Source: Psammoneis japonica (lineage: Eukaryota). Taken from it: DNA of 64,000 bases. Both the position numbers and the translations under genes were made by a program. The notes beneath the pieces are model-generated. The model was given only the letters and a program-made list of their open reading frames with translations. It was not told the DNA's origin and ran no database searches. Positions within the stretch are counted from its first letter, which is position 1. Each line of letters begins with the position of its first letter. This document shows, piece after piece, positions 1 through 54,341 of the stretch. The stretch lies in the NCBI GenBank assembly GCA_008632985.1, contig QPGO01000258.1:20166-84165 (forward strand). The letters run 5' to 3'.

Positions 1-1648
1 CCTGCATTGTCAAGGCAAACAATGGCAGGAGCTGCAGCAAGAGTTTTCAAGCAGGTGCCATGTTTGCAGCAAACCAAGGAAAGCTGTGTGACATGTTGGC
101 AGTGGAGAAGATGCAAAAGGCCTGTGTGAAGCACAACAACCTTCAATTCATGGCTGTGCCTGGCAACAATGGGAGTGTGCAGAGCAATGGCAAGTGTTTT
201 GAAGAAAAACATTTTGAACCAAATGCATGATGGCAGCAAGTGGGTGCTCTGCTGGCATGTCATGAGCTGCAGAAGCTGTCTGTGCAAGTGCAGCAGAACC
301 AACCATGTGCAGTTGCACCACTCAGTGACAGCTCACATCTGTCAACAAGAGCTCATGAGAATGCTTCAGCCACACCAGTGGCAGTGCCCTGGGTGGCCAT
401 CATGGATCCACAGTGTGGAGAGAATGTCAACATTGAGCAACTGGAAATGGCAATCAGCTGATGGCCAACATTGAGAAGATTGAAAGAGCAGAAAATGACA
501 TCACACACACCCCAAGGGTGCTTGACACACACAGAATCAGCACACCAAGACTCTGCAGAGCTGGCATGCTGCCTGGCAGTTTGGAAGGATGAGTGTGAGT
601 GCATGTGCATGGGGTCTGCACCTGAGGCACAAAAATGCCAAGGCTGGCAAGAAGATGCTGAAGAAAGGTGGTGCAACACAGCTTCTCTCTTGCTTTGCAG
701 CAGTGGCATCAGCTGACAATCATTGCCTCAAAGAAGCTCCAAAGCAAAGTGTGCATCATGCCAGTCAGACATCTTTGCATCAACCAAAAGATGACAGTTT
801 TCTGTGAACATTTTCACCTGGCAAAACTCCTCTTGCATTTCCCAAGAAGTGATGCCCATGTCTCACAACCAAAGCTGCCAAGAAGTGATGCCCACATTGC
901 AAATTGTTTGCAAGCATGTGTTGCCCCACAATCATGCTTTCAATCTGTCTGACAGACTGGCAACAAGGGTCACAAGAATGTTGGATGGAGCACAATCATT
1001 GGCGGGTGTGGTCATTGAGCTGGAGACAACTGGCATGACTGTCAAGATGACAACTGGCTGAGGAATCAATGCATTGCAAATGTGTGAGGGCCAGCAGACT
1101 GTGCACTGCTCTTGCACAAATGCATTTTCACATGATCAAGTGCCCACGTTGGTGATTTGTTTTCCCAGCTCTTCTTTGTTGCTGTTTTTTGCGGCATGTG
1201 CTGATGCCGGTGCATGTCTTCTGCGATGCTGCTGGGGCAAGATGAATTTTGCACTCACAAAAAGGAGTCCAAACCCATTTGCATTTTCTGAGAAGAGCTG
1301 TGCAAGCTTTGACAGTCTGAGTTTGCAGACAAGCTTCAGCTTTTTGGTGCTCCTGCCATGGCTGGTTTCATTGGGGGGAAGGGGGTGCCCAGGGAAAGTT
1401 CTTGGCACTCTGGGGACACTTGGGGGTGCCCAGGGATGACTGGGGGTGGGCATCCAGGGACAGTCAGACCTGGTGGGATGTTTTGGTGTCTCCAGCAGGA
1501 AGATGTGGCTTGTCAGGGAGAGAGGGCAACCCCCCCCCCACCAGAGTGGAAGCAGCAAGAGATGGTGACATTCTTCATGTCTGCACAATGTCTTGTTCAT
1601 TGTTGCTCCCACATCAAGTGCGATGTCTTGTTCCAGAGCATTGCAGAA
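1..1648. other. TpA/CpG-depleted, TG/CA-saturated hypermutated domain 1
   Basis: By eye no TA dinucleotide before position 1649 and only a handful of CG (first near 1003); abrupt return to normal composition at about 1649. Confidence 0.9.
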
Positions 1649-12304: not shown

Positions 12305-14641
12305 GGTGTTTGTTTCTTCGCTCAAAGTGAGGAGACAAAAGAAAAAATGAGTGGGTTCTGCGAACAGCTCAGCACCTATTTGACTCCATCGACTAAAAAT
12401 CTACAGCACAACTTCGTCGTTGAATCTGCGACCCCAGTCATCTTCGATGGACTGGACCTTTCATGCTGGAACCAAAAACTGCATTGTTTCCTTTCTCTGC
12501 ACTTGACTGGAGGCAGTCAATCTGGTGGAGCAAGATGATGACATGCTGGACATAGATGGTCATGGTGAAAACTCACTCCTCTCTTGTGGATGTTTGCACA
12601 ATGCAACATGTGTGTGAAAAATCAAAAGATGCACTTTCAGCTTAAATTTGCCTTCGTTCCAGATCCCCTTTCTGGCTCCCGGCATCATGAGAAGGCCCAC
12701 ACAATCAACAGGAGAAAAATGCTCCTGCTGCATCTTTGGCCTTTCTGTGACATCACAAAATCATTGCAGACATGTTGATGTTGCTGCGCTGTCTCCAACA
12801 TTTTCACACTTGTTAAAAAACTCAGCAGATGAGTTCACAATTGTTGTTTTGTGCAAGACTGATGAGACCTGTCTAAGAGCTGAGTCCATCTGAAGCAAGA
12901 CCATTGTGTGGGACTTGTTTCTGCACAATTGTGCAAGACTTTTTTTGTTTTTTGTTTTGCAGCCAGTTTCCCATGAAACACTTCTTGTTGCAAGCATTTG
13001 TGAGCAAGATGTTCCAAATGCATCTGGAACAAAACAGTCACAACTTTCACTGAGCAATCATTTGACCCACCAAACTGTCTCTCCAGTGGCCCCAATTGTC
13101 TTGAATTGTCAGGCTGACAGCTCAAAAAGACACAAACACACACACAGGAGGAAGAAACAAAGGGGGGGAGCAACATCTTTGCAGCATTTGGTTGAAAACA
13201 GCAGTGACAACATCAGGCAATTTTTTGCATGGTGACAGAGTGATGATGACAGGAATCAGGAACCATGCATCACTGGGGTTGTTGCTGGCAGCAGGGAAAG
13301 CCAGGGATGACACAAAACAGATGAGCGTGCATTGCCAGCAGCATGTCAGCAACAAGTTTGGGGGGAACTGGACCCAGCAACAAGAGGGCAGTTGCTCTCC
13401 AGCAGCAAGCAGTGTGTGACACTCAGGCAGAACTGCTTCTTTGTGCCAGCAACAACTGGTGTGCTGGGCATCAGCAGCATGGCTGCAGGCATGCTCAGAC
13501 ACATTGCCAGAGTTGCAAGGAATGTGACTGCCCAAAATTTGCACCAGCAAACTTGCACAACTGCTGGTGTTCTCACAAGCTTTGCCCTGGCTGCCTCCAG
13601 CTGCTCCTTGTGCAGTGTGCTGGCATCCCACAGAACCTGGGTTGTTTGTCAAATGACCAGACTGGACTTGCACAAGTGCTTTTTAACTCTCAATGAAAAA
13701 GAAAGCACTGTGTTGAGGTGGTTTGGACAATGTGCACAAAATGGGTGCCCACATGTGCCTCAAGCCCCCCCCCCCGCTGTGCTGGCAATGCACATCATGG
13801 CTTCATTGCTTCACTCACATCTGTTTCATTTCAGGATTGTGGGCATGACATCAGTGTTCATTGTGCCCCATGTCTCAACAATGGTTGAGCCTCTGCAAGA
13901 TTTTCCACAAAGTCACCACACCAAAAGGTGTGGGCATGCACAGCTGTCTTGTGTGGAGTGAAACATTTTCTGAGTGTGCATGACCAGTGCAATTGCTGCA
14001 CGGCACCACCAGGTGCACACTCTCCTGTTTCAACTGGCCCAGAAAATGAGATGCAGACAAGTGCCACATGTTTGTGAAGCAACAAGTTTCTTTTTTGAGG
14101 CACTGTTTGCTCCCAATGCCACGGCTCTAACAAGAGCATACAGAGATGCAAAAAGGCACTCACAATGGGAGATGCAATGGTGGTGGGTGTCACAAGTTGC
14201 CACACAACTGGTGCATGCATTGCAATCATGGCAATTGCAGCTGCAATGGCATGCTGGCATTTAGGATTTGACACAAATTCTGGAAGCTGGAAGCTGACTT
14301 GACTTTTTCATCCTCAATTGTGTGCGTCAATCTCAAATTTGTTTTTGGAAGTGCTGCAGTGGTGACAATGTGTCATCTGACACTTGGTTCCTTTTCTAAA
14401 TTGTTGTGCAATGCCCAATGAGTTTGCATTGTGCAGTGGACTCCTCTGTCCTCTTTGGTGTCCTCAGACTCATTTTTTAGACACAAGACACCACCACTCA
14501 GGTTCATCACACATGCAACCCTCCACCATGATCAACACAACACCTCCTTGTCTTATTCCAGCTTTGCAGACTTGTTAAAAGCACATGTCATGAGTGAACA
14601 GATGGCATTTGAGGATTGAAACAACACCAAAAGTCTGGTTT

Positions 14642-15620
14642 TTAAGTGCTGCTGTGCTTCCACCCCACAACTCTGACAACAAGCTGACCCACACCCCCAG
14701 CACACAAACAGTGCAGCAGGAGCATGAGAGACAACTTGCCAGATTTGGTGTCACCAGTGGGCAGTGCACTGAAACAACTTGCAATTGTCCTTGTGCATCT
14801 GGCAGCCAAACATTTGGCTTCTTTGATGCCAGACTTGAACATGGGTTTGACCATGGCCAACCAACTGCAAAGACAGTGAGCAGAGTGGTTGGTGTGTTCT
14901 TCAACCAAATCCATGAGATGCACTCTGTCCTTTGCCAGGCAGTCATCCATTTGTGAATGAAAAGCTTTCACTTCCACCTCTGCATCACGATGCTGCAAAG
15001 ACTTCCTCATTTCAGAATCATGGCCATGTGCAGCACAGTCATGGGAATCCCACAACTCCCGCCAATGCTCCCAAGTGCAATTGCCCACAGTGGCAGTGGC
15101 AGCATGCATTTCTTGTGGATTCAGTGTGTGCATCTGTGTTGGCATTGCCAGAGGTCAATCACAACCAGTTGCAAGCACAATCAACCTTGTCACTTGCTTT
15201 GAATGACTCCTCTTTGTCCAAATCCTCAGTGCCCAACAACAGATTGGACAAACCAAACTGGGCTTTCTTTTGCACTGTGGAGCCAGATGCCAATGGCAAC
15301 ATGTCAAGAAACAAAAAGAAGAAAAGTCACCGCTGTGACACTTGCTCCCAATGTCTTGGATTGCTGTCCCAAGAGTCAAGATGATGTGGGCCGGAGCTCC
15401 CAAAGCACATTCATTCTTTTTGCTTTCCAAATGAATGCAATGAGTCTCCAGACAAAATGTTGCAAGCATTGTGGACCATGGTGTTGACATTGAGCAAGGA
15501 ACATCACTTGTGTGCGCTGCCATTCTTGCAAGAACATGGAGGTGCAAGCCACAAATCACAGTCACATGACAAGAAGTGCCTGATGAAAAAGCCAAAACAA
15601 GGCACTGTGCATTGGCCAAA
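14642..15620 (-). mobile_element. Possible decayed 3' end of a non-LTR retrotransposon ORF
   Basis: WEHWRELWDSHDCAAHG resembles the W..W..LW..RN...HG motif near the C-terminus of LINE-type ORF2 proteins once CG/TA decay is allowed for; no RT core recognised. Confidence 0.3.
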
Positions 15621-18600
15621 ATGTCTGGTGTAACACTTTTGCATTGCTCATGCTTTCATGGTTTTTGAGTGTGTTTTTGCAGCAACTGCACAACCTGGCT
15701 GCAAGAAATGAAGAGTCACCACTTCCATTGGAATGGCACATTGCACACTTCTTTTGTCAAGACATTCTGCCCCCATCTCTTGCCACACATGCAGAATGCC
15801 TTCAGGTGCCACTCAAGAACAATGCAGTGGCTTCATTGTGGCTGCTGTTTTCTGCTGTTTTGAGCTTGTCAAACATCTTGGTAATTTGGGGGACACTGTA
15901 ATGAGAAGAATGCATTGGCTTGTGCTCACAGTGTTGATCTTCACTCCTCCCACCCATGACCAAAGCCTTGTCAAGTCTGCTTGCCCCATTTGAGTTGCAA
16001 GGATTGCACATCCCAGTGTTGCCATCACAAATGAAATTGGGTGGTCTTTCTTGATGCAGCTGCTCCACACATGGCAGGCATTGATGGTTGATGGGGTGAT
16101 GCACCTTTTCTGGTTTTTTGCACAAGACAATGACACATGGTTGCATGCTGTCTTTTGGGGTTGTTCTTGTTGCTGTTTGCACCCCACAAGACACATGTGG
16201 GAGCCAATGGAGAATTTGATCTAGGAGGCTTTGACAAGTCAATGCCAAGTCTCTCAAAAGCAGGTGTGCAGCTCTTGCCAGCAAAGCCAGAAACTCCATC
16301 ATTCAAAGGCTTCCTCATTGCAATGGGGTCAAATGAGCCAAATGGAGCAGCCTGTTTGTTTGACCAACACAATGGTTTTCAAAAGGAAAATGACACATTG
16401 TTCAACTCGTTGGCAAGAAAATGCACTGAGAAACCATCCCTGCATTGCCCTTGCTTTGTGGAGCAGGGACAGGCTGAATGCATTGCTGTGCAAGCTGGAC
16501 ATTGCAGCTGAGGGGTTTGCAGCGGAAGCCCCTGTCACCACACAAATGGCTTTCTCTTGGCACATTGAAACAAGATGAATCACTGCACAGCAGTCTAAGA
16601 GCTTGTGGCCTTGTCAATGCCAAAGACATCTCACTTTGCTTGGTGCTTCATTGTGCTGGTCAACAAGCCCACAATGCATGTCTGCCAATGTGCAACATGG
16701 GGAAAGTGCACTGAATGTTTCGCGCATCAGTGGTGAGGGGAGTGGGCTCTGTGGAAGCAACGCTGAATTCCATTGTGGAGAATGGCTCCAAAAAAGACAA
16801 TGTTCATTGTGAACAAACCCAACATCAGTTTTGGCCTCTGATGTTTCCACCAGGATGGAGCCAAACACTCTGTGAGCAGCCAAATGAAAGAGCATGCAAA
16901 CATCTTGTGAAGTCAAAAATGATGAGTTGGGCTCATTGGATTTTCTGTGAGATTCTCTGGCACAGTTTTTGCACATTGATGAATGATGCCTGATGCAACA
17001 ACAAGTGGCCATCATCTTGCTTGCCACACAATTTCAAGTTTTGTTGCAACAAACACTGTTGTTGCCAAGAATCTGTCCTCGTTGATGCCCCCCCCCCCCC
17101 CCCCCACATTGTGATTGCTCTTCTTCTTTGGTGTCAAGTGTGCAGCGCTGTTTTAGACATCACAGAGCCACCAGGCAGTTGCCTCAATCTCCAAGTGATT
17201 GATGAAAGGAGAAGCTCTTGCCACTTGCTTTTGTCTCCCATGACAGCAATCTTCAGAAGATTCACATGTTGGTCCACAATTTTTCAAAAGCTTCTCCATG
17301 AAGCCTTGTGGCTTTTGTTGCCTTGCAAGGTCACCACCGCTGCATGCCAAATTTCCCTCTTGCTGGGAATTTTGGATGCTTCAGAGAAAAAATGAGCAGA
17401 ATCTGAAGGACATGTCAATTTGGCCAATGAGATGCACAGGGACACAAAACAGAAGAGGTGATGAGCATTGGAGACAAGGTCAATTTTTTTAAAATCTTGG
17501 TGCTTTTGGTGGCACTGGCAACATGATGAACTTTGGCTCCATGTGTTGCATCTTGTTTCAGCAGGTGAGGGCTGTGTTTTCTGAAATGACTTTGAGACCT
17601 GTCAACACCTCCAATGTGATGACTGCAGAGTGGCAGAGGGTTGAGCTGTGCAGGGTGCACCAAAAATGGGGTTGTTGTTCCGTGCATCAGTGGTCAGTGT
17701 GTTTGGCATCAGCAGCCTCAGATGGCTCCAGGGCTGATGTCACCATTGCTCCCCAGGAGGCAAAGGTTGTGGAGGAGGTTGATGGCTGCTGAGTCATGAC
17801 AGCTGACAACTGGCAGTGTAAAGAGCACAGGCCAGGAGGGTTCATGGGTGGCACAGCTTTGGTCAACAGAGCAAGGTAGCATGCCCCAGACATGTCAACC
17901 TTGTTGAAGAGACTTGCGGGCTGAGTCTTAAAACATTTGATGGTTGACATCATGAGCCCATGGCAAAGGATCAGTGCAGCATCTTCACATGACTTGTGGT
18001 GAGGCCCACAAATCTCAACAACATTTTCTTCCTTGTTGAGCTTCTTCTTGCTCTTGAGATCATCTGCAGGTCCAGTTTGCTGCTGCACTGTGGACTTCAG
18101 TTGTTCATGCTGTGCAAGCCAGCCACATGGCTGGTGCATCATGCTGCAAAGTGAATCTGCAGAATGAAGTGCTGTCATTGGCACAAAGACTTTGGCAGCT
18201 GACACAAATGTGAAAAGAAGCAACATGCACTCCTTCTGCTTAAATTGTGTTTGATGCATGTTTTGAAAACCAACCATTTCTTTGCTCATGCTGCATGGAG
18301 CTGCACATCAATCACGACATTCAAAAATTCAACTGTTGCTTGAGTTTGGACAAATCCATTGAGAGTGCATGCAAGCTTTTGGCATCAAGAACATGTGAGG
18401 CTGTGCACTCCGCCTCCACCACAAATTCTCTTGTTTTGGTCTTGTTTGTCATTTGCAAGTTGGTTGAAAGCAACTCGGCTGACAGGCCCTTTTCTGTTGA
18501 CCATTTGGAAATGCTGGCCAGTGCACCAGGTTTGGAAAAATGCAAACAAGAGAAAGCATCATGAGAGTTTGCAAAACAGTGGCAACAACAAAACAAACAC

Positions 18601-19739
18601 CCTTTTCCAAAACCAAGCTTGACTTGCCTGTCTGCCCCAATGCACTTGGCACAAATTCCCATGACAGCTCAATTGCAAGTTCCATTCATTCATCCAGCTG
18701 TTCATTCATTCAAGTTGGTGGCACATGTGTCCAACAGCTTTGGCGCTTTCTCATTCACAACACTGTCAATGAGTGTGGTTGCCAACACAATGCCACAAAA
18801 GTGTGTGGACAGAGAGCTGTTGCTGCACAGGCACAGCAAACAAATGGCAGTGCAAGTGTGCAACAAACCCACAAAGCAGCAAGGAGAGCATGCAAGACAG
18901 GTTTAAAATGACATGCAATGTGCAAAAAGAATGTGCCGTGTGCACAACAAAACCAGCCAACTTCTGTGCAGGGCATCGCATGCCTTTCTGCAATGACTCA
19001 CTGCCGTGGCACCCTGCCCTTTCTTTGCTCTGTTTGTTGCAGCTGTGGCAAATGCATCCAGCCCCCAGTCACATGCAGACTCTCCACATTGTAAAACTTG
19101 GACAATGCAACAGAAAATGAAGAAGCCCACAGAACAAAAAGCAAAGTGTGTCTTTGCCATGAAGCTGAGCATGCGCCCATTCTGGACACTTGCTTCATGC
19201 AAAGACGCTGTGAAGCAGCTCCACACCCAGATGCACAGAATGGTTCTGCAGACAAATCAACATGCGCAGCATCACTTTCTGTCTTCTCATCACAACCTGA
19301 GTGAGCATTTCTTCCTTTGAACTTGTCTTGGCTTTTGCTGCACTTTGGTTGTTTGCCACACATGGAGGATTGTTCACAGCATGGAGCGGATGGCTTGGGC
19401 AGACAGTGGGAAGAAGGGGAGTCATCAATGCCAGAGAGGTGCAAGCTGAGAGCAGTCGGCAATTTGGCAAGTTGATTGTCCAAAATGACCTTCAAGACAC
19501 ACAGAAAATGTGCTGAAACTTGTGCAGACTTGTCGGCACACAGAAGGATGGCCAATGCATGCCAAGTTGGTGTCATCTTCAAACTTCTGAAAACAGCAAC
19601 AATGGGAGAACATTCACCATGTGAAAGAGGAAACTCAAATGGACAATGGGGAGAAGGAGGGTTGTTGATGCTTGAGAGGTGTGAAGAGAGAGCAATTGGA
19701 AGTTTGATGAGTTGCAGACAACATGCTGCACAACTCAAG

Positions 19740-20255
19740 TCAACCATGGGGTGGTTGCAGTGGCAGCAACATTTAACACCAAGTGCAAGAAACACCTGGA
19801 GAGCATGTTAAAACATCATTGTGATCACAAGGTGGGCATCCTGAAGAAAGATGTCTCCCCATTCAATGCCTTTGATCATCTTTCATCATCTGAACTCTTC
19901 ACTCAATTTCTTTGTTTCTTCTGCATCCGACATGACAGCAAATGTTTTGAAGGTCTAAAGTGGAGTGCATCATGCAGGTGCCCATGACTTGGACAATGCA
20001 CTCAACCAAGGTGACACAGAAAGGCATGAGCTCTTTCTTTGGCAGTGTTTTCAATGCCAAAAACACAAGCAAGCATGGCAACCCTTGCTTGTCATGATCA
20101 TTTGCAACAATCAAATTGTCCAAATGTCCACATTGAACCATCCAGAAGTTTCAATGTGTGGCTCAAATGACACCCTTCAATGCCAAATGAGACAATCCCG
20201 GGCACTTGTCAATGATTTGTGCAAGTTCCTGAGGAGCCGCAAGCAGTTGGACCTG
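19740..20255 (+). repeat. ~510-bp dispersed direct repeat, copy A
   Basis: Collinear with 21635-22148 (e.g. CAACATTTAACACCAAGTGCAAGAAA ... GCAAGTTCCTGAGGAGCCGCAAGCAGTTGGACCT). Confidence 0.9.
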
Positions 20256-21634
20256 GGATTGCAGAAGTGCATAGAAGATGTGGCACAATCAAAGGAAATT
20301 TTGCAACTCCCCCCCGCCCCGCTGCAGCAATGCCTGCGGTGCTCCTTGACAGCTGAAAACAATGATGTCACATCCCAGTGACAGGAATGGTGCATGGGGC
20401 AGAGAGCCATTGTGCAACAACAACAACCACTGAAGAGAAGAATGCCAACCAAGAGTGGAAGGAAAGTCCTGACCACAGGAAGAAGACAAGACAAAGGGGT
20501 GAGAACCACAGATTGAACCAGTGTTCAACAATGCTGCCATGACGCGATTCTTCATGTGGCGCACCATGGGTGCTGCCATGGTGAGAGAAGAAAAACCCAT
20601 CTCTGAGTGGGGGGCAATTTGTGTTTGGCAAATTGAAGAATGTGGGTCCGGCTCATTTCCATGCAGGTTTTGGGTTCATTGCATTTGGGATTCCATCACA
20701 TTTGGTGGGGGCAGTCACACTGGCATGCTTCATTGCATTCATTGACAACAATGCAGGTTGACAACTCGGCGGTGCACCACCAAAATTTCTGGCCCCTTTG
20801 CATTTTTCGTGTGCTCCACCAACATTTCTGAGCTTCGTCCATGTCCTTTTAATCCACCTGCTGGTCTGTCAACAGTTGATTCTGTTTGTTTTCATTTTTG
20901 CATGTTGTTGCCAAACATCTGTTTGAACAACAACAACGTGTTGCTGTGCCTCTGGGAAATGCAAATGTCAATGTTTTTGATGTCGTCATCATTGTTGTTG
21001 CCCACCTGCAGCTGATGGCTGTCATTTTCTTGAGTCTCTTTGTCCCATCCATGCACTCCCAGAACTCCTTTGACCAAGCTTCACTGCACTCATCTGCATC
21101 CTTGCTCAAGAATCTCCAACACTCATGAGTCCGTTCTCCCAATTCTTTTCATCTCTCTGGTCCTTTCTTGTTCCAACCCTGACTCACTTGGCTGCCAGAA
21201 TGAGCCCCTCATCTTTTGCGTTTTGCACTGCATGCATGTCCACTTTTGCCAGTTGTTCTCCAAAGTTAGCAGGCCAAATGCCAACCAGTTCAAGCAATGT
21301 TTTGACTTGAGCTGATGCTTCCACATTGTCTTTCCCACTGCTGTTGGCAGGAAATGCAGGACAAAACAGCTGTGGGCTAAAATGTCGTCCCTTTTCTCCA
21401 GCATTTCATCCAGAAAGGGCATCTTGGCATTTTTCCTGCTTGCGCATGTTTCTCTTCTCATGATCCATGTGCCCAGTGCACTCACAACACACCAAGCAAC
21501 ACCTGTTGGCAGTTTTCCAGCACCCCACATGTTGATGCAGTGCTTGTGAAAGTGTTCTTTCTTCAGTTCCCTGCTGAAATGCTCAAAACCCACAAATCAA
21601 GTTTTCTTCTTTCTAAGTGCAGACAACAACCACA

Positions 21635-22148
21635 AGGTTGGTTGTGGCAGTGGCAACATTTAACACCAAGTGCAAGAAATGCCTGGAGAGCATGTCAAAA
21701 CGTCATTGTGATCACAAGGTGGGTGTCCCAAAGAAAGATGTCTTCATTCAATGCCTTTGATCATCATCTGAACTCTTCACTCAATTTCTTTGTTTCTTCT
21801 GCATCTCACATGACAGCAAATGTTTTGAAAGTCCAAAGCAGAGTGCACTGTGCAGGCATTCATGACTTGGACAAAATGTGTTTGATTGAGATGACACAGA
21901 AAGGCATGAGCTCTTTCTTTGGCAGTGTTTTCCATGTAAAAAAAAAACAAAAGCAACAAGCACAGCAACCCTTGCTTGTCATGATCATTTGTTGCAATCA
22001 AATCGTCCAAATGTCTGCATTGAACCATCCAAAAGTTTCAATCTGTGGCTCAAACAACACCCTTCAATGCCAAATGAGACAACCCCGGGCAGTTGCCAGG
22101 TGTCAACAATTTGTGCAAGTTCCTGAGGAGCCGCAAGCAGTTGGACCT
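21635..22148 (+). repeat. ~510-bp dispersed direct repeat, copy B
   Basis: Collinear with 19740-20255. Confidence 0.9.
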
Positions 22149-22199
22149 CAAATCCTGCAAATGAGCCAGCTCCAACCAAATTGATTCAGAGCACAGCTT

Positions 22200-24460
22200 G
22201 AAATGTTCACATTGTCTGGGGAGAGGCGTTGTCAAGCGGACAATGCTTCTAAGATCAGGATCAAACTGTAGAAAATGCCACCAGTGACTGGCAGTTGACA
22301 ACAGCTGGCCGGAACCCTTTTGACTGACACCCATTTTTGTCATTTTGAGTGCACGGAATGATGTGTGGTTTGTCAACAACACAGATTGAAGGCTTTGCAA
22401 CAGTGCAGAAAGCATCTGACACACAGAAGGACATTGCACATGACCAACAACAAGAGTCAACAAGCACAATTGGCAACATTGAAGCCCAACAGTGGGATTC
22501 ACCCGGAGCTTGTTGTGTGCAGGCAGCTCTCTCTGCAAGGCTCCAAGTGCCAGAAATCATTGCTGCAATGATGAGAAACAGGGTGATTTGACAAATTGGT
22601 GTGGCCTGGTGCTGTTGACAGCCAATTGTGATGCCACGACCTTGAGGATGTGCAACATGCCATGACAGTTTGAACTGGCAAACTCTGGCATGCCAAAAAA
22701 ATCCTGCACCAATGTCCATTTCTTCGCTGCAATGCCCAGCCCAGTTCACCCGTCATTGTTGTTGAACAGTGCAGTTGTTGAAATGGGACAAAGCAACCAA
22801 GAAAGACAAACAATGCCCCAAGAGTCCTTGCACCACCGGCCACAACAAGTGCAGTCATCATGTGAAACAGCAGGACGATGAAAACACTCACAACAACCCC
22901 CTTGCTGTTGCACCATGCCCTGTGAGTGTCACTTGCACACAAGAGAAGTCTAAGATGTTGATGAAAACAGTTGAAGTCACATGTGTCCTTTGCAAACTTG
23001 ATCATGCTTTCTCAAGTTGCTCCCCAAAGGTGGCATCCAAGTCCGGCTTCCAAAAAGACGTTCCAGACTCACAATTGTCTGTTCAAACATCTGCGAGCAT
23101 CGTTCACATTGTGAACAAGATGCAATGCCACACCCAAGGTGCATGTTGTCCACACTTTTTTTGCTCCACTCACAAGTGTGGATCTCAACCATGCAAAGCT
23201 GGAAACCCACCCATCTTCCAAAAGGAAACAAGACCGAGCCTGAGTGATGCAAAGCCACATGAAAACAATGCATTGAGTGACATTCATGCCATTTTAAAGA
23301 GACTGTGGCAACAAGCAATTTGTTCATGCTTGCCTGGGTTGTTTGTTGTCTGGGTGCTGCACTCAACAAGCACATCACGGAAATGATTTCACAGCTGCTG
23401 CATTGGTCAAAGACAGGTTCTTGCTCTGCAAGTGGCAAAGTGCAGCACACAGAGAAAACACTTGTGTGAGCCACACAGGCAACTTAAACAAAGGCAGAGA
23501 TCTGACAAATGGAAGGAAAAAAAAAACACGAAACTGCTCTTGACAAGTGTTTTAAAAATGTGGACAGAATGAGCCACACAGGTGGCTTAAAATGAGAAAA
23601 AATGTGTGTTTGTTGTGTGCCAAGAAACAAAATTAACAATTGTGTGTGTTTAAGATCTGTGGATGCAATTAGCCAGCATGTGAAAATTTCAACACTTAAA
23701 AAGTTGTGCTCTTGTCAAGCACAGAAACATGTTGCAGATGCAGAGGAAGGAGAGAGGCCACACACACAAGCACCAGTGGTGACAGGCTGGCTGCTTGCAC
23801 AGGAAAGGGAGACATGAGTTGTTGAGTTGGGGCAAAGGGTTGGACCAAGAGCAAGCAGCACAAGACAGAAAAAACATCATCAATGCAAGGGGAGTTGGAG
23901 CCAATTGCAAGCAGCCCAAACTGGGCATTGCTTGGTGGAACAAAGGGTCTCCATGTTTGTTGTCATGAGCACGAGTGGTGTCAAAAGTGGGTTTGCATTC
24001 TAGTTCAGCAGCAGCGGTGCTTGTTGGAAAGTGTCATCAGATCAGCCTGTGGTTGCACCATGACAAAAAAGAAGAATTTTTGGCCCAATCAGCTGGCGGT
24101 CACAGCAATTTGTCTGTCTGCCCATCAAACAGGTTGTGTCCATGCCCCCATGTTGTGCCCTCTGTCTTTTGATGGCTTTTGCTCTGTCACTGACAAAGGA
24201 CCCATTTTGATTTTACAGCAGGTTTGCAAATCTTGTGTCCATTTCTTTTCTGCTTGCAAACCAGCTCCCAAAAATTGCATGAACAATGTCCACAGGAAGG
24301 AAAATGTTGCATGGGTTGGATTCAATCCTCATCATGTCACAACTGGTCTCCTGCTGCATGCAACCAAGGTGAAACAATCCATCCTGACAAAAAGGATGAT
24401 GAGTCCACAAACAAGTTGAAAATGATTGGCTTGGAGCAAAAAAGCATGTGATGGCTTCAT
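22200..24460 (-). mobile_element. Possible decayed Plavaka/CACTA-like transposase relic
   Basis: Minus-strand fragments in plausible order: LVCGLIILFV..D, NPTHATFSFL, LALMMFF, LGVALHLVH, KGSGQLL...HWWHF. Resemblance only, heavily mutated. Confidence 0.25.
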
Positions 24461-25887
24461 CAGATTACTTGTTGCTGTGCGGGGGGGCATCTGGGCTTTT
24501 TGTCCAGTGCACACATTGTTGGAAAATGAGCTCAGGACGGAGCTTGGAACAAAACACATGTGCACATGCCCCCTTGAAGGTCTTTGGTGGTGAGAGCCCT
24601 TGTGGCTGCACACCCCTTGCTTGAGCAAACTGTGTGGCAGAGTGGCTTGTGTGTTGCAAACATCTGTCTTGTGGCATTTGAGTCAACAAGAGGCTTGGAT
24701 CTTGGACATTGATGTGTTTGGCATCCAACAAGGCTGCAAACACTCTGGGCAATGGGCTTGTGAGATGGTCACTTCGGTTTCTTGTGATTCTGATGAGAGT
24801 TGGTGCATTTGCTTCCTTTGTCTGCATCTGCCATGTTTGGAGCCACAAGTCTTTTTGTTGCTGTCACCTGCACACTTTCGCTTGTTGCATTGACATGACG
24901 TCCAAAGACAGCTCTTCCACAGACAGACTTGACCACTTTCTTGTCAAACATTCAAGAGGACCCTGCAAAGACATGTTGATTCCAGCACAATGTTGGCCAC
25001 CAAAGAAGCGTTGCCATTGACCAGACTGCAAGTTCAGCGCTGCTGCTTTCTGAGGCCTGAAACAATTGATTGACCAGGGGCACATCTGCGGACACTGCGC
25101 AAGAGTTCCAATGTGACCACAAGAATGGATGGAGCCCTTTAGAACAGAAAGAAGCAAGAGGGCCCTCTCTCTAAAGAGAGGGCCATTGCAAAAGCATTTG
25201 CAGAAGTTCTGAGTGTGTCAAGTCCCTGCTTGAAATGCGATGGTGATTCGTTCGTGCTGGGTGCTGACAACAGGTGACGTCTCTGATCCCTGAGTCAACA
25301 GAACAGCCACATGATTGGCTATTCATTCAATGCTCTGCAATTGACTTTTTGTCTTGTTCAAACCCCATTTTGAAGAGTGTGCAATTCGAAGCATCAGCTT
25401 GTTTTTGCACACTTTCTAAGCCAAGCCAAACAAACAGAACCTTCCTTGCTGTCTGGAGCAAATGCTCCAGAGATTTGCCAATGAGAGTGCCTGGCAATGT
25501 CCTTGGAGCCTTTTTACAGCAGAATGATCCGCTCACAGACAATGCATCATTGTCATGTTCATGCCATGCCATCCCTTCTGCTTTTTTGTCAATCTTCAAT
25601 CTGTTGATTTTTCTTTTTGTTGTGCCAATTTTAGCTTTTCCATCCTTTTTTATTTTCGTCACACATTTGACCAAAATAAGAATAATGTCAAGCGAAGGAC
25701 AGACAGACATTTCCTGCGCTTTCTTTTGCAAGAACGCACTCCCGGCTTGGAAGCAACTCGCAACAAAAATAAGATTCTGACACTGACAGCAAAGCAATCA
25801 TCAGTCATCATCATTGAATTCTCAATCAAGAGAAGCTTGCCCCGAAAGTCACAATATTTTTCGTATTGATCATTCTTTTATCAAACA

Positions 25888-27888: not shown

Positions 27889-28789
27889 ACGATTCCTTAA
27901 AGCTACACTCGTGTAGTATTTACTATTCATACATGTATTAAATCTGGTTCCAGAGATGTTATAAGATAGAGAAGTTAGTTATAATAAGAGTAGTACACCA
28001 TCGGAGGCGCGATGTTGCTGACAATAAATCTGCTGGGACTTACCGGTATTCAATAATATTCCTGGCGGATGCGCTTTGTCGGTCGGTAGTATTCGGCATC
28101 ACGTTAGCGGCGAGATAACTCTCGCCTGAGCCGCTTAGTCTCTGCGTCTGCATTAAGAAGCCTGGTGCAAACTGTTTGTACTCTCAGCTTCTGAGCTTAC
28201 TTTCCATGTCCCAAGGAACAGTCTCAAAGGGTTGAGCACACTTTAGGTGGGCTTCTTGACTACAGTTGTGGTGGCAAAGCAAAATCTGGGAGAAATCTGG
28301 TGGCAAAATGTCGGCCATCAGAAAAAGTGACTTCTGCCATGCTGTTTGCACTCTCAGCTTCTGAGCGTGCTCTTCACATCCCAAGGTGCAATTCTTGGAT
28401 TTCAGCACTTTGGGGAAGAAAATTGTCCCTCCACTTTCTAAACTGAGCCACAGTTCCGCCTTGTTCATTGTTGTGAAAGTCAATCATCGTTCAGATGTCT
28501 GCAACTTCTTCTCTGTGACCTCCAGTGCAAGACGATGCCTTTGAGATCAGATTGTCCATCCTGCAAACTGGACGAGACATTTGGAGTCCCCCAGCTGTTG
28601 TTGTGTGAACAAGCACTGCTGCACCCCACACCGAGAATGGGATGTGATGACAGACAGTGTCACTTGAGGTGCAACAAGATGACTCCAGACAGCACAACAA
28701 TTCCCGATGAGAGACGACATGACTCAAGACTGAGTGACATTTGGCACCACAGCGGCTGACGCCCACAGCACATTGATGCCCCAAAAAGC

Positions 28790-29250
28790 AGAATTTTTTT
28801 ACACCTGTGAATCAAAGATTTGATCAATGAAGCACAAGTGAAGAGATGAAATGAACAAATGAAGATCAAAGCATGGATGGCATCAACTCCACATTTTGTG
28901 GTCTTCCTCATCAATGCAGGAGAACAACATTTCTCTTCACAGCTCCCTCACATCACACTCAAGACAGGGGGCACATTTCTTAAATGTGTCAAGTCAAAAC
29001 AAGCAATGTTCATTGATGGAGAAGGTGCAGCAAACAAACGAACATCGGATCCTGGGTTTGGTCACTCAGAAATGGCTGACAACAGAGAAAAAGCCCATCT
29101 TTTGATTTCCACACAACAAACACACCATTTCTTGCCAAACCAATGGCCACATCTGACAGCAAGAACTTCCAAAACCAACACACATGCTTTCACTAGATGG
29201 CAATGACAAAGAACAGCTCACACAAGGCTGGGCATGGGTTGGCAGCACAT
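28790..29250 (+). repeat. Decayed relative of the 55700-56327 inverted-repeat arm
   Basis: CTCAGAAATGGCTGACAA...CCCATCTTTTGATTTCCACACAAC...GCCAAACCAA matches 56136-56215 with CG->TG/CA and TA->CA/TG changes. Confidence 0.85.
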
Positions 29251-31610
29251 CACTGCATGCAAGCAAAAAATCCAGGCTTTGGACAAAAGTCTGCACACAT
29301 CCTGCCAACATTTCTCCTCCCCAAGGCTGCCCACACTGCAGCGCACTCTTGTCCCCAGCAGGTCAGTGCAGATTTTTTGAGCTTCCTGGCTTCAGCAGAG
29401 AAAAGTGGCCTTCTGTGATGGCACCAACCAACTCAACAAGCCAAACAGCAGGCTGAGGACACAAACTGGTGGGCCCCACCATGCGACACTCTAAGAGCTG
29501 CATGGTTGAGTGTTTGGCAGTGCAAGGCCAGTGTTGTGCACACTTGTGGTGCCCTGTCATGTCCTCCCACCAGCCAGAAGCACACCTCAAACTCCCAAAG
29601 CTCTGTGCCAGATGGTGTTGTGCACTCGCCGCATGCGTGCAGCTCAGCCTGATGTGAAGTTGCAGGCCACACACAGAGAGTTGGAGCTGACAGACAGATC
29701 CACATGACTGGGTCTTGCAGCATCAGCCAGAGAGTTTTTTTTGCTGGCAAGTTGCTTCTTGCCACAAGCTGCCCCAGATGCCTGGAAAACTGGCCCACTT
29801 TGAGAATGGCCACAAACTCCAAAACAGCACACCGCTGAAGCCAAGAAATGATGGCAACCAGTGCATTTAGAGGGTGCATCAACAATGGCAGGATGTCCTC
29901 CAATTCTGGACTCCCTCCTTGGAAAAAAGCTCTCCAGACACTGACAGCAAGTTTGAGTGGGGGGGGGGGGGGGGGGGGGGGCAAGCACACCTGATTGAAC
30001 TCCAAGGTGCACTGAGCTTTGCTTGCACAAAGAAAGTGGCTTGGGGCTCATCATGATTTTGCCTTCTGATCTCTGGACATCCTGATGCTCCACAAATTTC
30101 AACCCTGCCACAGCTTTGGCAGTGCTGCATCTTCTTGTCCCTCTGCACAGCATCCTGTGCCACAGGTTTCTGTTCTTTGCAAACTGCAGGAACAGCCCAC
30201 CATCCATGGAGATTGTGCATGTTGTTCTCAAAGCAGACTTGGATGACATGAGCATGTCTGGTCTGTCCAAAAACTCTTGCAATTGCAGTGCTTCAGACCG
30301 CTGGCCTCAAGCTGGCTGACCTCCATTTCTCCTGGCATGTGCTGCTGCTGACTCCTGCCCCCTGCTGCCTTTGAATGGTGTCAGGGTGTGTTTGCAGCAT
30401 GTCTGGGATGCGCTCTGCCAGAGGCCAAAGAGGAGCCAGCTGCATGCCTCTTGTTGTGAACCACATGCTCAGTGGATGGCACCCCAGAGCTGACCACACA
30501 AACAAACTCTTCTCTTTGTGTCATGTGAGGCTGCATTGAAAGTTTCCTTGACAGTGTCTTGAGGACCCACTTGCACATCTTGAGCTTCTTTTTTGAGTCA
30601 AACTCCATGCATCCCAAGTTGGCTGCCTGCCTTGGCCCTCCAATTCCAAGACCTCTGTTCACAACTGACTTCAAAAATGCTGCTTCAAGCAACTCACCAG
30701 GAGCTCCTCTTGTGGCAACAGACACAGACCCCATGACCAGCTTGGCTGATTTTCCAGTCACTGTGAGCATCATCCTGTGTCTGGAGCTGTTTTGTGACCA
30801 CACCTTTCTCTCCACACAAGGTGCTGGTGAGCTTGTCACATGCATGTGACAAACCATGTTTTCATCAGATCCCAACCTGGAGAAGAGCAGTTGAAAATCT
30901 TGCAGTCTTGGCCACAAATGCTCTTCCCAAGTGACAGAATTGCTGCCAGAGCTTGGACACAGAGATGTCATCTCCTGGTCCAACTTCAGTCCCCAGCTTG
31001 AGCAATGACCACATCAAACTTGAGATGTCAGCTGCTCAGATCCATTCACACAACATGCAGAGACTGCAATGTGACTGTGTCATCCTCACATTTGAGTTCA
31101 ATGCACTGCGCACAGAACACAACTCTGAGATTGATCCCCAGCATGCTGTTTTTAAGCACTGTGGCTGTGGGGTCCAATGAGTCACTTGCCATTGTGGGAG
31201 GCTCCATGATGCACCACATGGGTTGGAACACATGGCCACAAAATTTCACTGATCTTGGAGCCATGACACATTGCTCCATGTGGAGCACAGTTGGCAAATG
31301 GTTGAGCTGAAGTGCAGAAGCTGCAGTCTGACACATGTCAGCTGGGAGAACTGCTTGCATGGACTGTCACTCTGCTCAGATGCCTCCTGAGCTTCTTGTC
31401 AGCATTCCTTCAAAATGATGCCACCCCAAACACTTGCCCTTCACAGCTGGAGTTGACACATGAGGATCCTCCAGCACAAACTTGGTCTGAAGCCTTCTGA
31501 TCTCTTCACACAGAGAGACTCTGTTGTTCTGACAGAAGTGTGTGCAATGCCAAGAGTGAAGGTCATCAGGCCTGACACTTGAAAACAAAAACTCCCTGAA
31601 GACAATGTAA

Positions 31611-32274
31611 AAAAGCTGACAAAGCAAGAAGAGTGCACACCTCTGCTGAAGATTCTGCACTCTGCATCTGAAGCTGCACATCTTGTGATCCCTTTGAGCA
31701 ACACCAGTGTGGGCAAAGAGCAGCAGCACATGGGAGTCCAGTGCCCTCATTGCTGGCCAGTTTCAGCTTTGTTTTGTGTGGTGTCCCAGATGCTGACACA
31801 CCTCAGGAAACTTTGTTGCCACCAGACCATGCAAAAGCTGACAAAGAGAAGTGTGCACACCTTTGCTGAAGATTCTGCATTCTGCAAATGAAGCTGCATG
31901 TCTTGTGGTCCCTTTGAGTGACACCGGCATGAGTGAAGAGCAACAGCACATGGGAGTCCAGTGTCCTTGTTGCTGGCCAGTTTCAGCTTTGTTTTGTGCA
32001 GTGTCCCAGATGCTGACACACCTTGGGAAACTTTGTTGCCACCAGACCATGCAAAAGCTGACAAAGAGATGTGTGTGTGTGCCTGCCTTTGCTGAAGATT
32101 CTGCATTCTGCACATGAAGCTGCACATTTTGTGGTCCCTTTGAGTGACACCAGCATGGGCAAAGAGCAGCAGCACATGGGAGTCTCCAGTGTCCTCATTG
32201 CTGGCCAGTCCCAACTTTTTTGTGTGCGGTGCCCCAGATGCTGAGACACATCTCAGGGAACTTTGTTGCCACCA
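31611..32274 (+). repeat. Three tandem ~220-bp units
   Basis: AAAAGCTGACAAAG starts at 31611, 31833 and 32053; shared GCTGAAGATTCTGCA, CAGCACATGGGAGT, AACTTTGTTGCCACCA. Confidence 0.92.
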
Positions 32275-34044
32275 AATTGGCTGCAGGAGTTTTGCCTGTG
32301 TCCAAGGGTGTCTTGAGCCTGCAGGAGGAAGTGGTTCATTGGGGCTGCACAACTCTTCCCTCCTTCACAAGCCCAGCTGAGAATGGGTGCTGCACCTTTG
32401 CACAGAGGCTCTCAACAGCTGTCTGGAAAATGTGATTGCTCTTGTTCAGCACTGAAATTTGCTTGGCAAGAAGCCTGCATGTTCTTGTCAAGAAGTGCTC
32501 TTTCACAGTGAGCAAATGGCTTTTTACAAATGGCCAACTCAGCAAAGTGGTGAAAAAGAACCAGACTTGAGGAAGTTTGGTCTCACAATGCATGAGCTCT
32601 TGATGACATTTTGTTTTGAACTCAACCACTGTGCAACACTGTTGTGAATGCTGGAGTGTCAACTGTCAACTAAAGCAGCAAAGCAGGAGACAACAATGAA
32701 TGGAGCATGGCTCATTTCTGTGCACATGTGCCCCAAGTTGTTCTCAGCAATTGTTGTTGTTCATTGGCTGGACAACACTGACATTTGATTTGTTTGCTTG
32801 TCAACTGTTGTGCATGATTTTGCAATTTTGTGGCTTCCAATGTGGCGATGTTTGCTTTCTGCCCACCTGGCAATGTTTGTCGTTTGGTGCATGCTCTCAT
32901 TCCATGCTGTCATTCCACTGCAAATTTTGCTCCCTCTGTTGTTTGAGCCACCACCCAATTGCCTGTCCCACTGTCTCTTGCAGCTTGTTGTGCATCTTGG
33001 CACTCTTGTCTGTGCTGACATCACACAGTGCTCCAGTCTTTTGTGTTTCAAAGAGAGTCAATTTTTGTGACAGCTTTTCATTGTGAGACATGACTGGTGC
33101 AATCCCTGACAGAAGAAAGCAGAGAAGTTGTCAGTTTGTCACATTTTCTTAGCAAGCATGGTGCAATGCTGCTCTTTCTTCTTGCCTGTGTGCAATGTTG
33201 CAGCAGTTTGTGTCTTGTCCTTGGCTGTTTTTGTCAACTTGTCTGAGCTTCAGCAAGAAACAAAAAGAAAGCACAAAGGGAAAGAGTCAGTTTGTTGTCT
33301 GCCACCCAAGCTGCCTTCTCTCATGCCATGGACCCAACCTCTTGCCTTTCCTGTGGCTTTTCTTTGTCGTCCTGTGCAAAGTCCTGGGTTTTGTTGGTGC
33401 CTGCCTGCAAGGTTGTCATGGCTTGTGTGCTGCTTGGGTGTGTCCTGAGTTTTTGTGCTTTTTTGTGTGGTTGTGATGTGCCTTTTTGCCACAGAGCCAA
33501 GCCAGCCAGCCTGGTGATCATTGCCTGTGTTGTTTTGCAAGTGGTCATCTTAAAATGAAGCCTTTCATTGCATCATTTTTTGAAGATCAAGTTGTTTCAG
33601 TCAACTCAATTGAGTCACTTCATTGGTCTTTGTCCTTGACACATTCTGCTGTTTGTGAACTCTCATCTGTCTGGCCCGCACAGCTGGGTGTTGAATGTTG
33701 TTTCAATCAAATGTGGTGTGCACCCATTTCAAAAGGTTGAGATCTCAGTTTTGTGGCCTCAATTGGCTCTGTCAAGAATGAAATTTTCAGATTTGTGCTG
33801 GTCCCTGCAGTTTGATTGTTTGTGCCCGTGAGGCTGCTGTTAAAGCAAATCTTTGCAGCAAGTCTGCACATGCACAATGACCTTTGTTGCTGTTGCACTC
33901 TGATCATGGTTGAAACTTGCAGGCAGGAGGTCAGAAGAGGTCATGGAGTTGGTTGTGCAGGTGGTTGCAGACAGAGAGTTAGTTGAGCAAGAGGTTGGCT
34001 GGGTCAGCACAGATGGCAAAAGGGTCAAATGTCAAATGGTGATG

Positions 34045-34940
34045 CCAACCAAACAACCTGACAGTTGCAAGCTGAAGACACTGGCAGCATCTGTCTGGCA
34101 CACCCCAGGCAACTTCTCAAGAACTGTGGCCAGGCAAAATTGCAAAACTGATCTTGTGGTGTTGTGGCCGGATGTCACCTTGTCTCCACCAGCACCTGCA
34201 AACTTGATCTCCTGAGTTCTAGATTGCAGGGACCCCATGATGTCAACAACGAATCTGACAGCAAGCTGAGGGCATTGGTGGCATCTGGTCAATTCCTGGC
34301 ACAATGCTTTGACAACTGGTGCTGGGCATTGAAAGGTTGGTTTTGTTGCTGTTGTGGCCTCACATCACCTTGCCCCCAAAATGGCAGGTGAGCAGACTTG
34401 ATTTTCCCAAATCCAGAGTGCAGCAATCCCATGGCGGCACCAACCAACCTGACCAATGCAAGCTGAGGGCATTGGCAGTCTCTGGTGGACCCCAGGTGAC
34501 TGTGGCTGAGCATTGTGAGGTTGACCTTGTGGTGCTGTGGCCGCATGTTGCCTTGACCCCAACAGCAGCCAGAACTTGAGAACCCCAAATCCAGAGTGCA
34601 AGGATCCCATGACAGCTCCAACCAGGTTTTTCTCCTGGATCTTGAGCTGCTTTTGCATCCTTTTCTGACTGTGATTGTTCTTTGTCCTCATGGTGTGAAT
34701 GCTTTGCATCCATTCCAAAAGAAAGCAACAACCTCACTCTTGTGCACCAGTGTGGGTCAGCTGGTGATGGCGCAGCTGGGCAAAGGTGTGTCGGCACTTT
34801 AAAGTTGGGTTTGAGTTTTTTTGTCCCTGCCAGCACCTGCAAACTTGAGCCCCCCAAACTGCAAAGTGCAAGGACCCTGTGATGGCACCAACCAACCTGA
34901 CAGCTGAAAGCTGAGGGCATCATCAGTGTCTGGTGGATTG
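34045..34940 (+). repeat. Degenerate ~195-bp repeats
   Basis: AAC(C/T)TGAC...AAGCTGA(G/A)G.CA.TGG motif near 34050, 34245, 34440 and 34890. Confidence 0.7.
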
Positions 34941-35043
34941 ATCTCACAGGAAACACCCCCCAAGACCAATCTTGAAATCAGCCAACAACGACACAACTCA
35001 TCAACATTCACTTGGATCGAGCCTCGATAGAGCTGTAAACAAC

Positions 35044-45130: not shown

Positions 45131-45894
45131 GTCTAACAGAGATGATGATTCGTAGCGGTGAAAATGAAATCATTGAACGGGAACCGCGCCGCACCATCGT
45201 CAACGGCAAGCACTGCCGTGCGCTCAGCGCGCAGCTGCGCCCACGTCAGCAAGCGACTCAACCGTGGCGACGATCGGCCGTTTCTCAAGAAGAAGAAGAA
45301 CGAGTCAGTCACCATGGCTCATTTTCAATTGTGCTGTGGTCACTGCAATGAGGTGGCTCTCATGCTGGTTTCAAGAGCTCCAACAAAGTGCAGTCTGGAG
45401 TGTGCGAGAAAAACAAGGTCCAAGAGTCAGGCCGGTGTCTTGGCTGTCATTTGCACATTGCACACACCGCACAAACACGCGCAGCTCAGCAACAATTTCT
45501 CAAACCCATGCAAATGTGGGCAGGGAAATGGGGGATGGGGGAAAGGTCAAGCTGCACTGCAGCTCATCCTTTGAAAAGAGCAGAAGCCTCTGCTGAACAT
45601 TGATGTGTGCGTGGTGCACAAAGCCCCTCATTGTCGCTTTCTTTTTGTGAACAGTGGCTGCTGTCCACAGCAAGCAACTCATTTGTTGCCATGCAGGAAA
45701 CAAATGGACTGGCTCCATTCTGGGATTCTGTTTCCATGTTCAAGTTGAAACTGTTGACATTCATGCACTCAAGCTGCAAAATTGGCCTCGCGCACATTTC
45801 TTTCCCCACGTTGTTTCTGGGAGGAGCAAATGACAACTCTGGGCAGCAGTTGGAGGCATTTCTGCAGATGTGTGAACGGCACACCACCATGTGG

Positions 45895-48425: not shown

Positions 48426-48720
48426 ATGATTCGCTCTTTGCTCATGTCAGTCACTGTTGCCCTTTTTGGCTTGGCCCATGCTGGGACGAATCCTGAGGGA
48501 CTGAAGTTTCCAGCCGCCAAGACACAGGAGGACGGGGTTGTGGAGTTTCCGTCAGGCCTTCTCTGCAAGGAACTTCGTGCTGGAACCGGTCCGTCGCCGA
48601 AGATTGACACGCCGTGCTTTTGCCACTGTGCAGGAACTTTGATCAATGGCACTGAATTTGACAGCTCTTACAAACGCGGGGAGCCGCTCACTTTTGCTCT
48701 GGAAAATGGGAGCTTTGCAT
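48426..48720 (+). pseudogene. FKBP-type peptidyl-prolyl isomerase, truncated and decayed
   Basis: Signal-peptide-like start, then GTNPEGLKF...GVVEFPSGLLCKELRAGTG..P...TPC.CHCAGTLINGTEFDSSYKRGEPLTFA; conserved Tyr replaced by Cys; C-terminal half absent. Confidence 0.85.
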
Positions 48721-50777: not shown

Positions 50778-50864
50778 TGTTGCTGTGGAGTGGGCTTGCA
50801 CTCTAGAACGATTGTGCAAATGTGCAAAATGCAGAGGAGAAAGCGCTGTCATTTGCCATTTTCA

Positions 50865-54114: not shown

Positions 54115-54142
54115 TTCCACAGTTTGCCTGCCGTACACCGCG

Positions 54143-54319: not shown

Positions 54320-54341
54320 CCGTCCTCCGTGAACCGATACC

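Follow-up and report, generated by a model that had tools for sequence, protein, structure and literature searches.

Erased TA dinucleotides in repeat-rich domains of a diatom genome follow a T-A-Y flank rule

A contig of the diatom Psammoneis japonica contains blocks from which TA dinucleotides have nearly vanished, and the few that remain lie mostly between a pyrimidine and a purine (5′-YTAR). What process erases TA and leaves this one context until last? We analyzed a 64,000-nucleotide stretch of the contig (the window) together with the rest of the same genome (G000; 91.4 Mb, 597 contigs), in which C numbers denote contigs, L numbers denote fetched loci, and F1 to F4 denote four young copia families. 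The sites are lost by a process that prefers T-A-Y, best A-T-A-Y, with TAC about equal to TAT and both 2 to 4 times faster than TAA or TAG.

Surviving TA contexts and the direction of change

The window consists of ordinary DNA interleaved with five sharply bounded domains, delimited with a two-state hidden Markov model (HMM), which are TA-poor and mostly CG-poor as well, with unchanged GC content (Table 1); the intact genes between erased domains retain TA. An earlier note on this DNA had placed the finding at 12600-22300, which is indeed depleted throughout, although the HMM domain is wider (12403-25631). Over these 9,701 bp, TA occurs 37 times (observed/expected ratio [o/e], 0.05 versus 0.59 in ordinary DNA) and CG 62 times (o/e, 0.12 versus 1.0), TG and CA each have an o/e of 1.89, and base composition is unaltered.

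The surviving TAs are TTAA (13), CTAA (8), TTAG (4), and CTAG (1), giving 26 YTAR, with GTAA (6), GTAG (2), and one each of ATAC, TTAT, and ATAG making up the rest. The claim of the earlier note that survivors are mostly YTAR was thus borne out: the share was 193/1199 in the undepleted segments of the window (P = 3e-13) and 0.31 was expected from a null using the region's own dinucleotides (P = 1e-6), so that residual contexts are not proportional to background. Nine of the ten TA coordinates it listed are exact, and the tenth, 12815, lies one base away from its TA at 12814; of the exceptions it named, GTAA and ATAG occur, whereas TTAC itself is absent from the region, where only its reverse complement, GTAA, is present. 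Across all five depleted domains, 71 of 95 TAs were YTAR and one was RTAY, and A was overrepresented at position +2 beside survivors (82/142 strand-ends versus 128/386). The YTAR enrichment is therefore a real, non-random feature. YTAR is slowed, not protected, as 15 of 18 ancestral YTAR sites in the window, identified from undepleted homologues, were lost anyway.

The earlier note had read this pattern as a TAY-preferring target. YTAR is the only context without TAY on either strand, but it is equally without RTA, so that the survivors alone cannot separate the two rules. They predict opposite outcomes at RTAR and YTAY, and we therefore tested the direction of change there. Compared with undepleted homologues, the window read CA at 21 and TG at 5 of 33 RTAR sites and TG at 22 and CA at 11 of 36 YTAY sites, so that the TAY strand was favored 43:16 at asymmetric sites. 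For power, we fetched 60 copia loci and used 54 of them, in the four young families, leaving six divergent loci (L191-L196) out of all counts. F2 comprises 14 copies of 6.57 kb, near-intact members included; in F1, F3, and F4, a column had to retain TA in two or more copies to be counted, a filter that removes the fastest sites. Changes on the TAY and TAR strands numbered 371:154 in F2 (sites, 77:19 with 15 ties; P = 2e-9), with CA 56 versus TG 19 at RTAR and TG 315 versus CA 135 at YTAY, and the bias recurred in F1 (719:295 events; 80:17 sites), F3 (262:109; 54:8), and F4 (147:83; 38:12). A near-identical contig pair (C223/C3), in which 73 of 315 differences are TA-type and lie in local bursts, was not used for rates.

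That the target is instead 5′-RTA, a purine before TA, would predict the same survivors and could draw on the roughly 2-fold higher rate seen with A at −2 in G000. It expects RTAR to become TG and YTAY to become CA, however, the opposite of what the window and F2 gave, and G at −2 brings no boost in G000. The direction counts in the window and in F1 to F4 reject RTA as the main rule, and we give it almost no weight. The TAY preference of the earlier note thus stands on the polarized direction of change and not on its survivor argument, which fits RTA equally.

A likelihood fit to F2, with local intensity per copy and 400-bp bin, put the rates for the base 3′ of the target A, relative to A, at 3.3 for C (5 to 95% bootstrap, 2.6 to 4.4), 1.1 for G, and 4.0 for T (3.1 to 6.0), and those for the base at −2, again relative to A, at 0.43 for C, 0.44 for G, and 0.42 for T. 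The negative log-likelihood fell from 1667 for the base model to 1558 with the 3′ term, 1639 with the 5′ term, and 1526 with both. In F1, F3, and F4, the +1 rates were 2.1 to 2.8 for C, 1.0 to 1.3 for G, and 2.2 to 2.9 for T, and the −2 values were 0.4 to 0.5 in F3 and F4 and 0.5 to 0.8 in F1; A at −2 thus adds about 2-fold in three of the four families, with a less clear effect in the fourth. Judged by direction alone, TAC would seem the strongest context, because a T at +1 on one strand is an A at −2 on the other. The earlier note had likened the context specifically to the U-A-C of the natural tRNA substrate of TadA, a parallel that is not supported, since TAT was as fast as TAC or faster in all four families and nearly as fast in the metagenome loci described below. 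Selection on open reading frames (ORFs) as the source of the flank rule was rejected, as the TAY-strand bias in F2 was present in all three codon phases.

The T at −1 is close to obligate. In the hot zones of young copies, the rate per A was 0.24 to 0.58 at TA, compared with about 0.01 at VAY and 0.001 at VAR (V, any base other than T), and survival was 16/37 for TTAA, 34/74 for CTAA/TTAG, and 13/272 for RTAY. Private off-target A>G changes in these zones showed the same +1 preference (VAY, 37/3487; VAR, 6/4205; P = 4e-8); they were mostly at CAC, AAC, and AAT and weakest with G at −1. In cold zones, VAY (19/11037) and VAR (17/12244) did not differ.

Run forward from ordinary DNA, the F2 rates predicted 49 YTAR among 76 survivors, compared with the 71/95 seen. 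The survivor spectrum could alternatively reflect newly created or selected TAs and not a mutator preference, as would suit the 4 of 11 alignable survivors that have no TA in the undepleted homologue (of the others, four match and three are TA in a faster context there) and the underprediction of TTAA by the forward model. Since direction and loss rates in young copies give the same rule in all codon phases, this explanation is largely refuted and very improbable as a whole; it can account for part of the TTAA excess only.

The same +1 rule holds in a second organism. A metagenome scan with the F1 reverse transcriptase gave 80 loci. The copies analyzed are 63 to 66% identical to G000 copia DNA (no more than 65% along the reverse transcriptase) and therefore from another organism, presumably a diatom judging from the element type. 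Eleven loci with a TA o/e below 0.35 had 134 YTAR and 14 RTAY among 319 TAs, while in 44 loci with an o/e above 0.55 these contexts made up 16% and 34%. The TAY:TAR ratio was 460:218 in 29 TA-rich/TA-poor pairs, and with reference L262 the site counts were 44:13 and the +1 rates 3.5 for C, 0.6 for G, and 3.1 for T. The three metagenome references tried seem to be one family and count as one replicate.

Timing, strands, and CpG decay

Changes at the F2 TA columns were nearly all transitions, with 1018 of 1049 giving TG or CA, 4 giving CG, and 27 giving other outcomes, 21 of these at five shared columns. They showed no sense bias (intercept, 0.01; confidence interval, −0.09 to 0.12), and TG outcomes numbered 582 compared with 598 expected under a strand-symmetric model. 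Neighboring changes shared a strand no more than in a permutation null at distances from 10 to 10000 bp. The action is thus distributive, without strand-coordinated runs. GC-biased conversion was rejected, as A/T outside TA is nearly untouched and CpG shifts the opposite way.

The two long terminal repeats (LTRs) of an LTR retrotransposon are identical at insertion. Here, they were changed differently, which places the mutation after insertion, on DNA: in F2, 104 TA sites were changed in the 5′ LTR compared with 24 in the 3′ LTR, of 238, and in F1 the counts were 86/289 (5′) and 117/238 (3′), with F3 and F4 likewise hit more in the 3′ LTR. The LTRs of the F2 copy L185 are 99.7% alike. As F2 leans the opposite way from F1, F3, and F4, position in a spreading zone decides, not homology; a universal gradient starting from the 5′ LTR was rejected, being confined to F2. 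In the F2 copies (L177-L190), erasure begins in the first 1.5 kb (5′ LTR and gag) and extends 3′ to a copy-specific distance, forming a natural time series.

These results bear on two known processes. Editing of transposon RNA by an ADAR-like enzyme, with the changes then written into DNA by reverse transcription, would account for retrotransposons being among the targets and for A>G after U/T, which is ADAR-like according to the discussion in Mettrop et al. (bioRxiv 10.64898/2026.01.13.699255). However, the two strands are affected to the same extent, the LTRs of a single copy differ, and the changes extend to a terminal-inverted-repeat element and to copies of host genes; moreover, ADAR is described as preferring UAG (PMC11334849), whereas TAG is slow here (1.1 versus 3.3 for TAC). 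Strand symmetry and LTR discordance reject this RNA route, which we regard as having a negligible chance of being correct.

Repeat-induced point mutation (RIP) of ascomycetes converts C to T mainly at CpA, creates TA and stop codons, and is triggered by the pairing of duplicates. The diatom process resembles it as an in-place, irreversible transition mutagenesis of repeats, and RIP is tied to methylated silent DNA, as the diatom process probably is. In contrast to RIP, TA is destroyed here and CA is in excess (o/e, 0.05 and 1.89, respectively), C>T outside CpG is flat, no stop codon can be made, and LTR pairs differ although RIP mutates duplicates alike. RIP was rejected on its opposite chemistry and on the LTR discordance.

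TA loss runs ahead of CpG decay, in the same zones. The F2 copies have lost between 5 and 174 of 289 TAs, up to 174/289 with only 23/379 CGs lost; F1 has lost 1832/3999 TAs and 373/9853 CGs, and in F1, F3, and F4 TA loss exceeded CpG loss about tenfold. CpG decay was 0.026 in hot zones compared with 0.0034 in cold ones, and the two losses co-locate in all four families (Spearman, 0.23 to 0.42). Deamination of 5-methylcytosine (5mC) at CpG would account for the CG>TG/CA half of the domains, without loss at CpH, but fails to explain a TA loss that is roughly tenfold or more ahead. CpG proximity as a trigger was rejected, as distance to the nearest CpG had no effect on TA loss.

Such co-location would be expected if the repair of deaminated 5mC involved error-prone synthesis, by polymerase eta or iota or the like, that spread A>G into methylated repeats, and polymerase eta in somatic hypermutation is reported to prefer WA, with T>C at TA hotspots (PMC9723645), sharing with the diatom process both these hotspots and a coupling to a deaminated cytosine mark. 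However, AA is barely touched in hot zones (AAR, 0/1177; AAY, 13/943), far below the rate at TA, transversions are few (27/1049), there are no tracts or same-strand runs at any distance tested, and both the lack of dependence on CpG distance and the tenfold lead of TA loss stand against it. We consider this polymerase explanation improbable.

Content of the domain and neighboring features

The domain at 12403-25631 is a mosaic. It combines a decayed DENN gene copy, a segment that also occurs on C166, two fragments of a dispersed 1.9-kb repeat, and blocks that recur on other contigs. As most surviving TAs of the block shared with C231 and C222 are common to the copies, erasure there predates the duplication or allelic split. 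Both TA and CG of the C49 DENN homologue read TG or CA in the window copy.

Table 1 Coordinates of depleted domains and their components in the window
Feature	Position	Strand	Details
TA/CG-depleted domain holding the finding	12403..25631	.	55 TA, 99 CG in 13.2 kb; two-state HMM
Region of the finding	12600..22300	.	37 surviving TA, 26 YTAR
Further depleted domain	1..1648	.	0 TA, 6 CG
Further depleted domain	28262..35027	.	16 TA, 38 CG
Further domain	45154..53158	.	TA erased (21); 299 CG in all, CG mostly retained from ~48.2 kb; holds Dak1 gene copy
Further depleted domain	59965..64000	.	3 TA, 33 CG
Depleted block common to C231 and C222	12356..17579	.	~97.5% identity; most surviving TAs shared
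Decayed copy of host DENN-domain gene	15113..16721	+	Undepleted, intact homologue on C49 (L061/L111) polarizes changes
Decayed segment copy	18169..18773	.	Undepleted homologue on C166 (L067), used to polarize
Depleted fragment of dispersed 1.9-kb repeat	19721..20259	.	Genome holds both depleted and undepleted copies of this repeat
Second depleted fragment of dispersed 1.9-kb repeat	21629..22299	.	

One copy of the 1.9-kb repeat (L007) carries 9-bp terminal inverted ends. Relative to the undepleted state, ten depleted copies showed TA>TG 164 times, TA>CA 122 times, and TA>CG twice, with 42 TAs kept, and CG>TG 150 times, CG>CA 143 times, and CG>TA never, with 47 CGs kept. In a young copy (L006), 16 of 19 private changes were at TA and none at CG.

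Other parts of the window differ in the state of TA and CG. A Dak1 gene copy at 50865-52010 (−) and the loci L031-L034 have lost TA and retained most CG, with undepleted paralogues on C223 and C3; the stretch from 48.2 to 53.1 kb looks like an early stage, with TA lost before CG. The surviving CGs of 12600-22300 have a context bias of their own, with GCGC, CCGC/GCGG, and CCGG at 0.22 to 0.35 of the ordinary level, TCGC/GCGA at 0.04, and TCGA at 0/156. A gene for a fumarylacetoacetase-GST (maleylacetoacetate isomerase-like) fusion at 25870-27888 (+), whose best named protein homologues are from Fistulifera (62%) and Mayamaea (61%), forms a 2.6-kb island of normal TA with sharp edges between two erased domains. 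Taken alone, these protein matches would place the host probably among the raphid pennate diatoms. Head-to-head 18-bp tandem arrays at 54142-54322 adjoin a 2-kb element with inverted arms of about 690 bp (54342-55031 and 55640-56327), which has an erased relative at 28825-29243. Local duplicates of an SPB4-like DEAD-box helicase (4650-6138 and 10559-12017) and of an ankyrin-repeat gene (38530-39738 and 43974-45189) are unerased, so that duplication alone is no trigger of erasure.

Elsewhere in the genome, three copia families with long open frames (L157-L176 and L197-L216) have coding parts that contain little TA (about 10 per kb) and a normal amount of CG in nearly all copies, and the first 600 bp (LTR and leader) often retain TAs. 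It is as if these active lineages had inherited an earlier TA erasure.

A proposed adenine deaminase

On balance, we lean toward a reading in which a TadA/ADAT-like deaminase, recruited to silenced and probably CG-methylated chromatin, rewrites the repeat-rich domains in place, faster at TAY. Such a mutator would turn the A of TA to G on either strand, by deamination to inosine that is read as G, 2 to 4 times faster when C or T follows, and YTAR, slow on both strands, would be the last to go. Recruitment may be by heterochromatin or 5mC, the CG methylation of the target DNA being putative; transposable elements of diatoms have been described as CG-methylated islands (PMC9998398). Since TA>TG or CA can never convert a sense codon to a stop, the decay of transposons would be missense-only, possibly in a defense role.

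The enzymological parallel is with adenine base editors derived from TadA, described as editing TAY best and MAR (M, A or C) worst (PMC10879117), with a slight bias against G at −1 and with laboratory TadA variants able to edit any context (PMC10085711). The diatom process shares the A>G outcome, the order from TAY down to A/C-A-purine, at on-target and off-target sites of G000 alike, and the disfavored G at −1; it differs in the absence of a C-over-T preference at +1, and the need of the engineered editors for exposed single strands, like their ability to edit all contexts, is a feature of their own. The resemblance to TadA proposed by the earlier note thus gains agreement in context order and stays an analogy.

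Several observations weigh against this reading or its flank rule. The T at −1 is far stricter in the diatom, by more than tenfold, than in laboratory TadA variants; a processive enzyme working on exposed single strands would be expected to leave strand-coordinated runs, and none are seen; and A>G on one strand looks the same in sequence as T>C on its complement. Deaminase family searches of G000 gave no clear chromatin-targeted candidate and none tied to the mutator. The copia copies are partly non-independent, as flanks are common to some of the F2 loci and the direction of change is the same at 90/117 sites in one pair, which makes the site-level counts a safer test than the event counts. 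The forward model misfits TTAA (12 predicted versus 29 seen) and CTAC/GTAG (10 versus 2), the −2 pattern in the metagenome set differs from that in G000, and the alignable survivors suggest that some surviving TAs are newly made.

The deaminases found in G000 look ordinary: a TadA-like gene (C38) and an ADAT2-like gene (C26), both of which are needed for tRNA editing, two Tad1/ADAR-domain loci, and dCMP deaminases. There is also an AID/APOBEC-like ORF of the NAD1 family on C2 (L314:1057-2019, −; 320 amino acids) with HAE and PCxxC motifs and one close homologue (50%) in the protein collection. The genome has 27 C5-methyltransferase matches; 12 of these loci were fetched, and the 16 ORFs scanned, from 10 of the 12, had no deaminase domain. 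Four methyltransferase copies (L227, L228, L229, and L233, on C301 and C297) sit in TA-erased, CG-retaining DNA and are possibly element-borne, and in L230 the methyltransferase match is accompanied by a weak one to a chromodomain.

A modified base offers another route. Adenine could be methylated at TA before being deaminated or miscopied, or the thymine of RTA could be oxidized and mispair with G; in either case, the flank rule would belong to the modifying enzyme. This explanation would suit the strict specificity for TA, the strand symmetry, the distributive action, and the nearly pure transitions, as would the fact that a damaged A and a damaged paired T are indistinguishable in sequence. 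We nevertheless think it unlikely, as the TAY-best, MAR-worst order, off-target sites included, agrees with TadA-derived editors, and no Tet_JBP match was found in G000 at E ≤ 0.1, which does not prove absence.

The closest known case is Bigelowiella natans, in which integrated DNA of nucleocytoplasmic large DNA viruses and virophages undergoes A>G/T>C hypermutation at TpA only; the preprint puts forward an ADAT-type deaminase and cites amphioxus ADAT2 but identifies no enzyme (Mettrop et al., bioRxiv 10.64898/2026.01.13.699255). Both systems show TA>TG/CA changes on both strands, almost exclusively transitions, confined to foreign or repeated DNA and leaving TA-poor, TG/CA-rich blocks; in the diatom, the sharp domains lie over repeats and gene duplicates, which are presumably silent. 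The spread among the F2 copies is compatible with the behavior of B. natans, where the de novo rate is raised about 1000-fold in some lines only. Unlike in B. natans, the host is a diatom, the process acts on copia elements, on a terminal-inverted-repeat element, and on copies of host genes, and, unlike in that report, erasure reaches about 90%, co-locates with CpG decay, and has a measured flank rule. The words "diatom," "trinucleotide," "flanking," and "CpG" have 0 occurrences in the main text of the preprint, whose mutation Table S2 may bear on flanks. Our literature searches found no diatom case and no flank rule, with this preprint as the sole report of TpA hypermutation. The present analysis adds the quantified flank rule, the diatom case, and a second lineage, TpA hypermutation itself having been reported already in B. 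natans.

Editing of adenine in DNA became available through the evolution of TadA in the laboratory, and, to our knowledge, natural eukaryotic A>G genome mutators have barely been described. We tentatively raise the broader possibility that diatoms possess an adenine deaminase of genomic DNA, the counterpart in nature of the base editors, which would be recruited to methylated transposon chromatin, edit T-A-Y on both strands, and disable transposons by missense decay. It would be shared by at least two lineages with diatom-type copia elements and may be the system of Bigelowiella as well. The process has a fingerprint, comprising a near-obligate T at −1, a 2- to 4-fold effect of C/T at +1, an approximately 2-fold effect of A at −2, and weak spillover to A/C-A-Y, with no strand bias, no processive runs, and a lead over CpG decay. 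This makes the hunt for the enzyme testable, as any protein proposed would have to yield the same ratios when assayed on oligonucleotides or a reporter. Annotation is affected as well: roughly half of the window is rewritten, and the loss of TAA and TAG lengthens spurious ORFs. If the reading is true, a major algal group would have a RIP-like genome defense of opposite chemistry.

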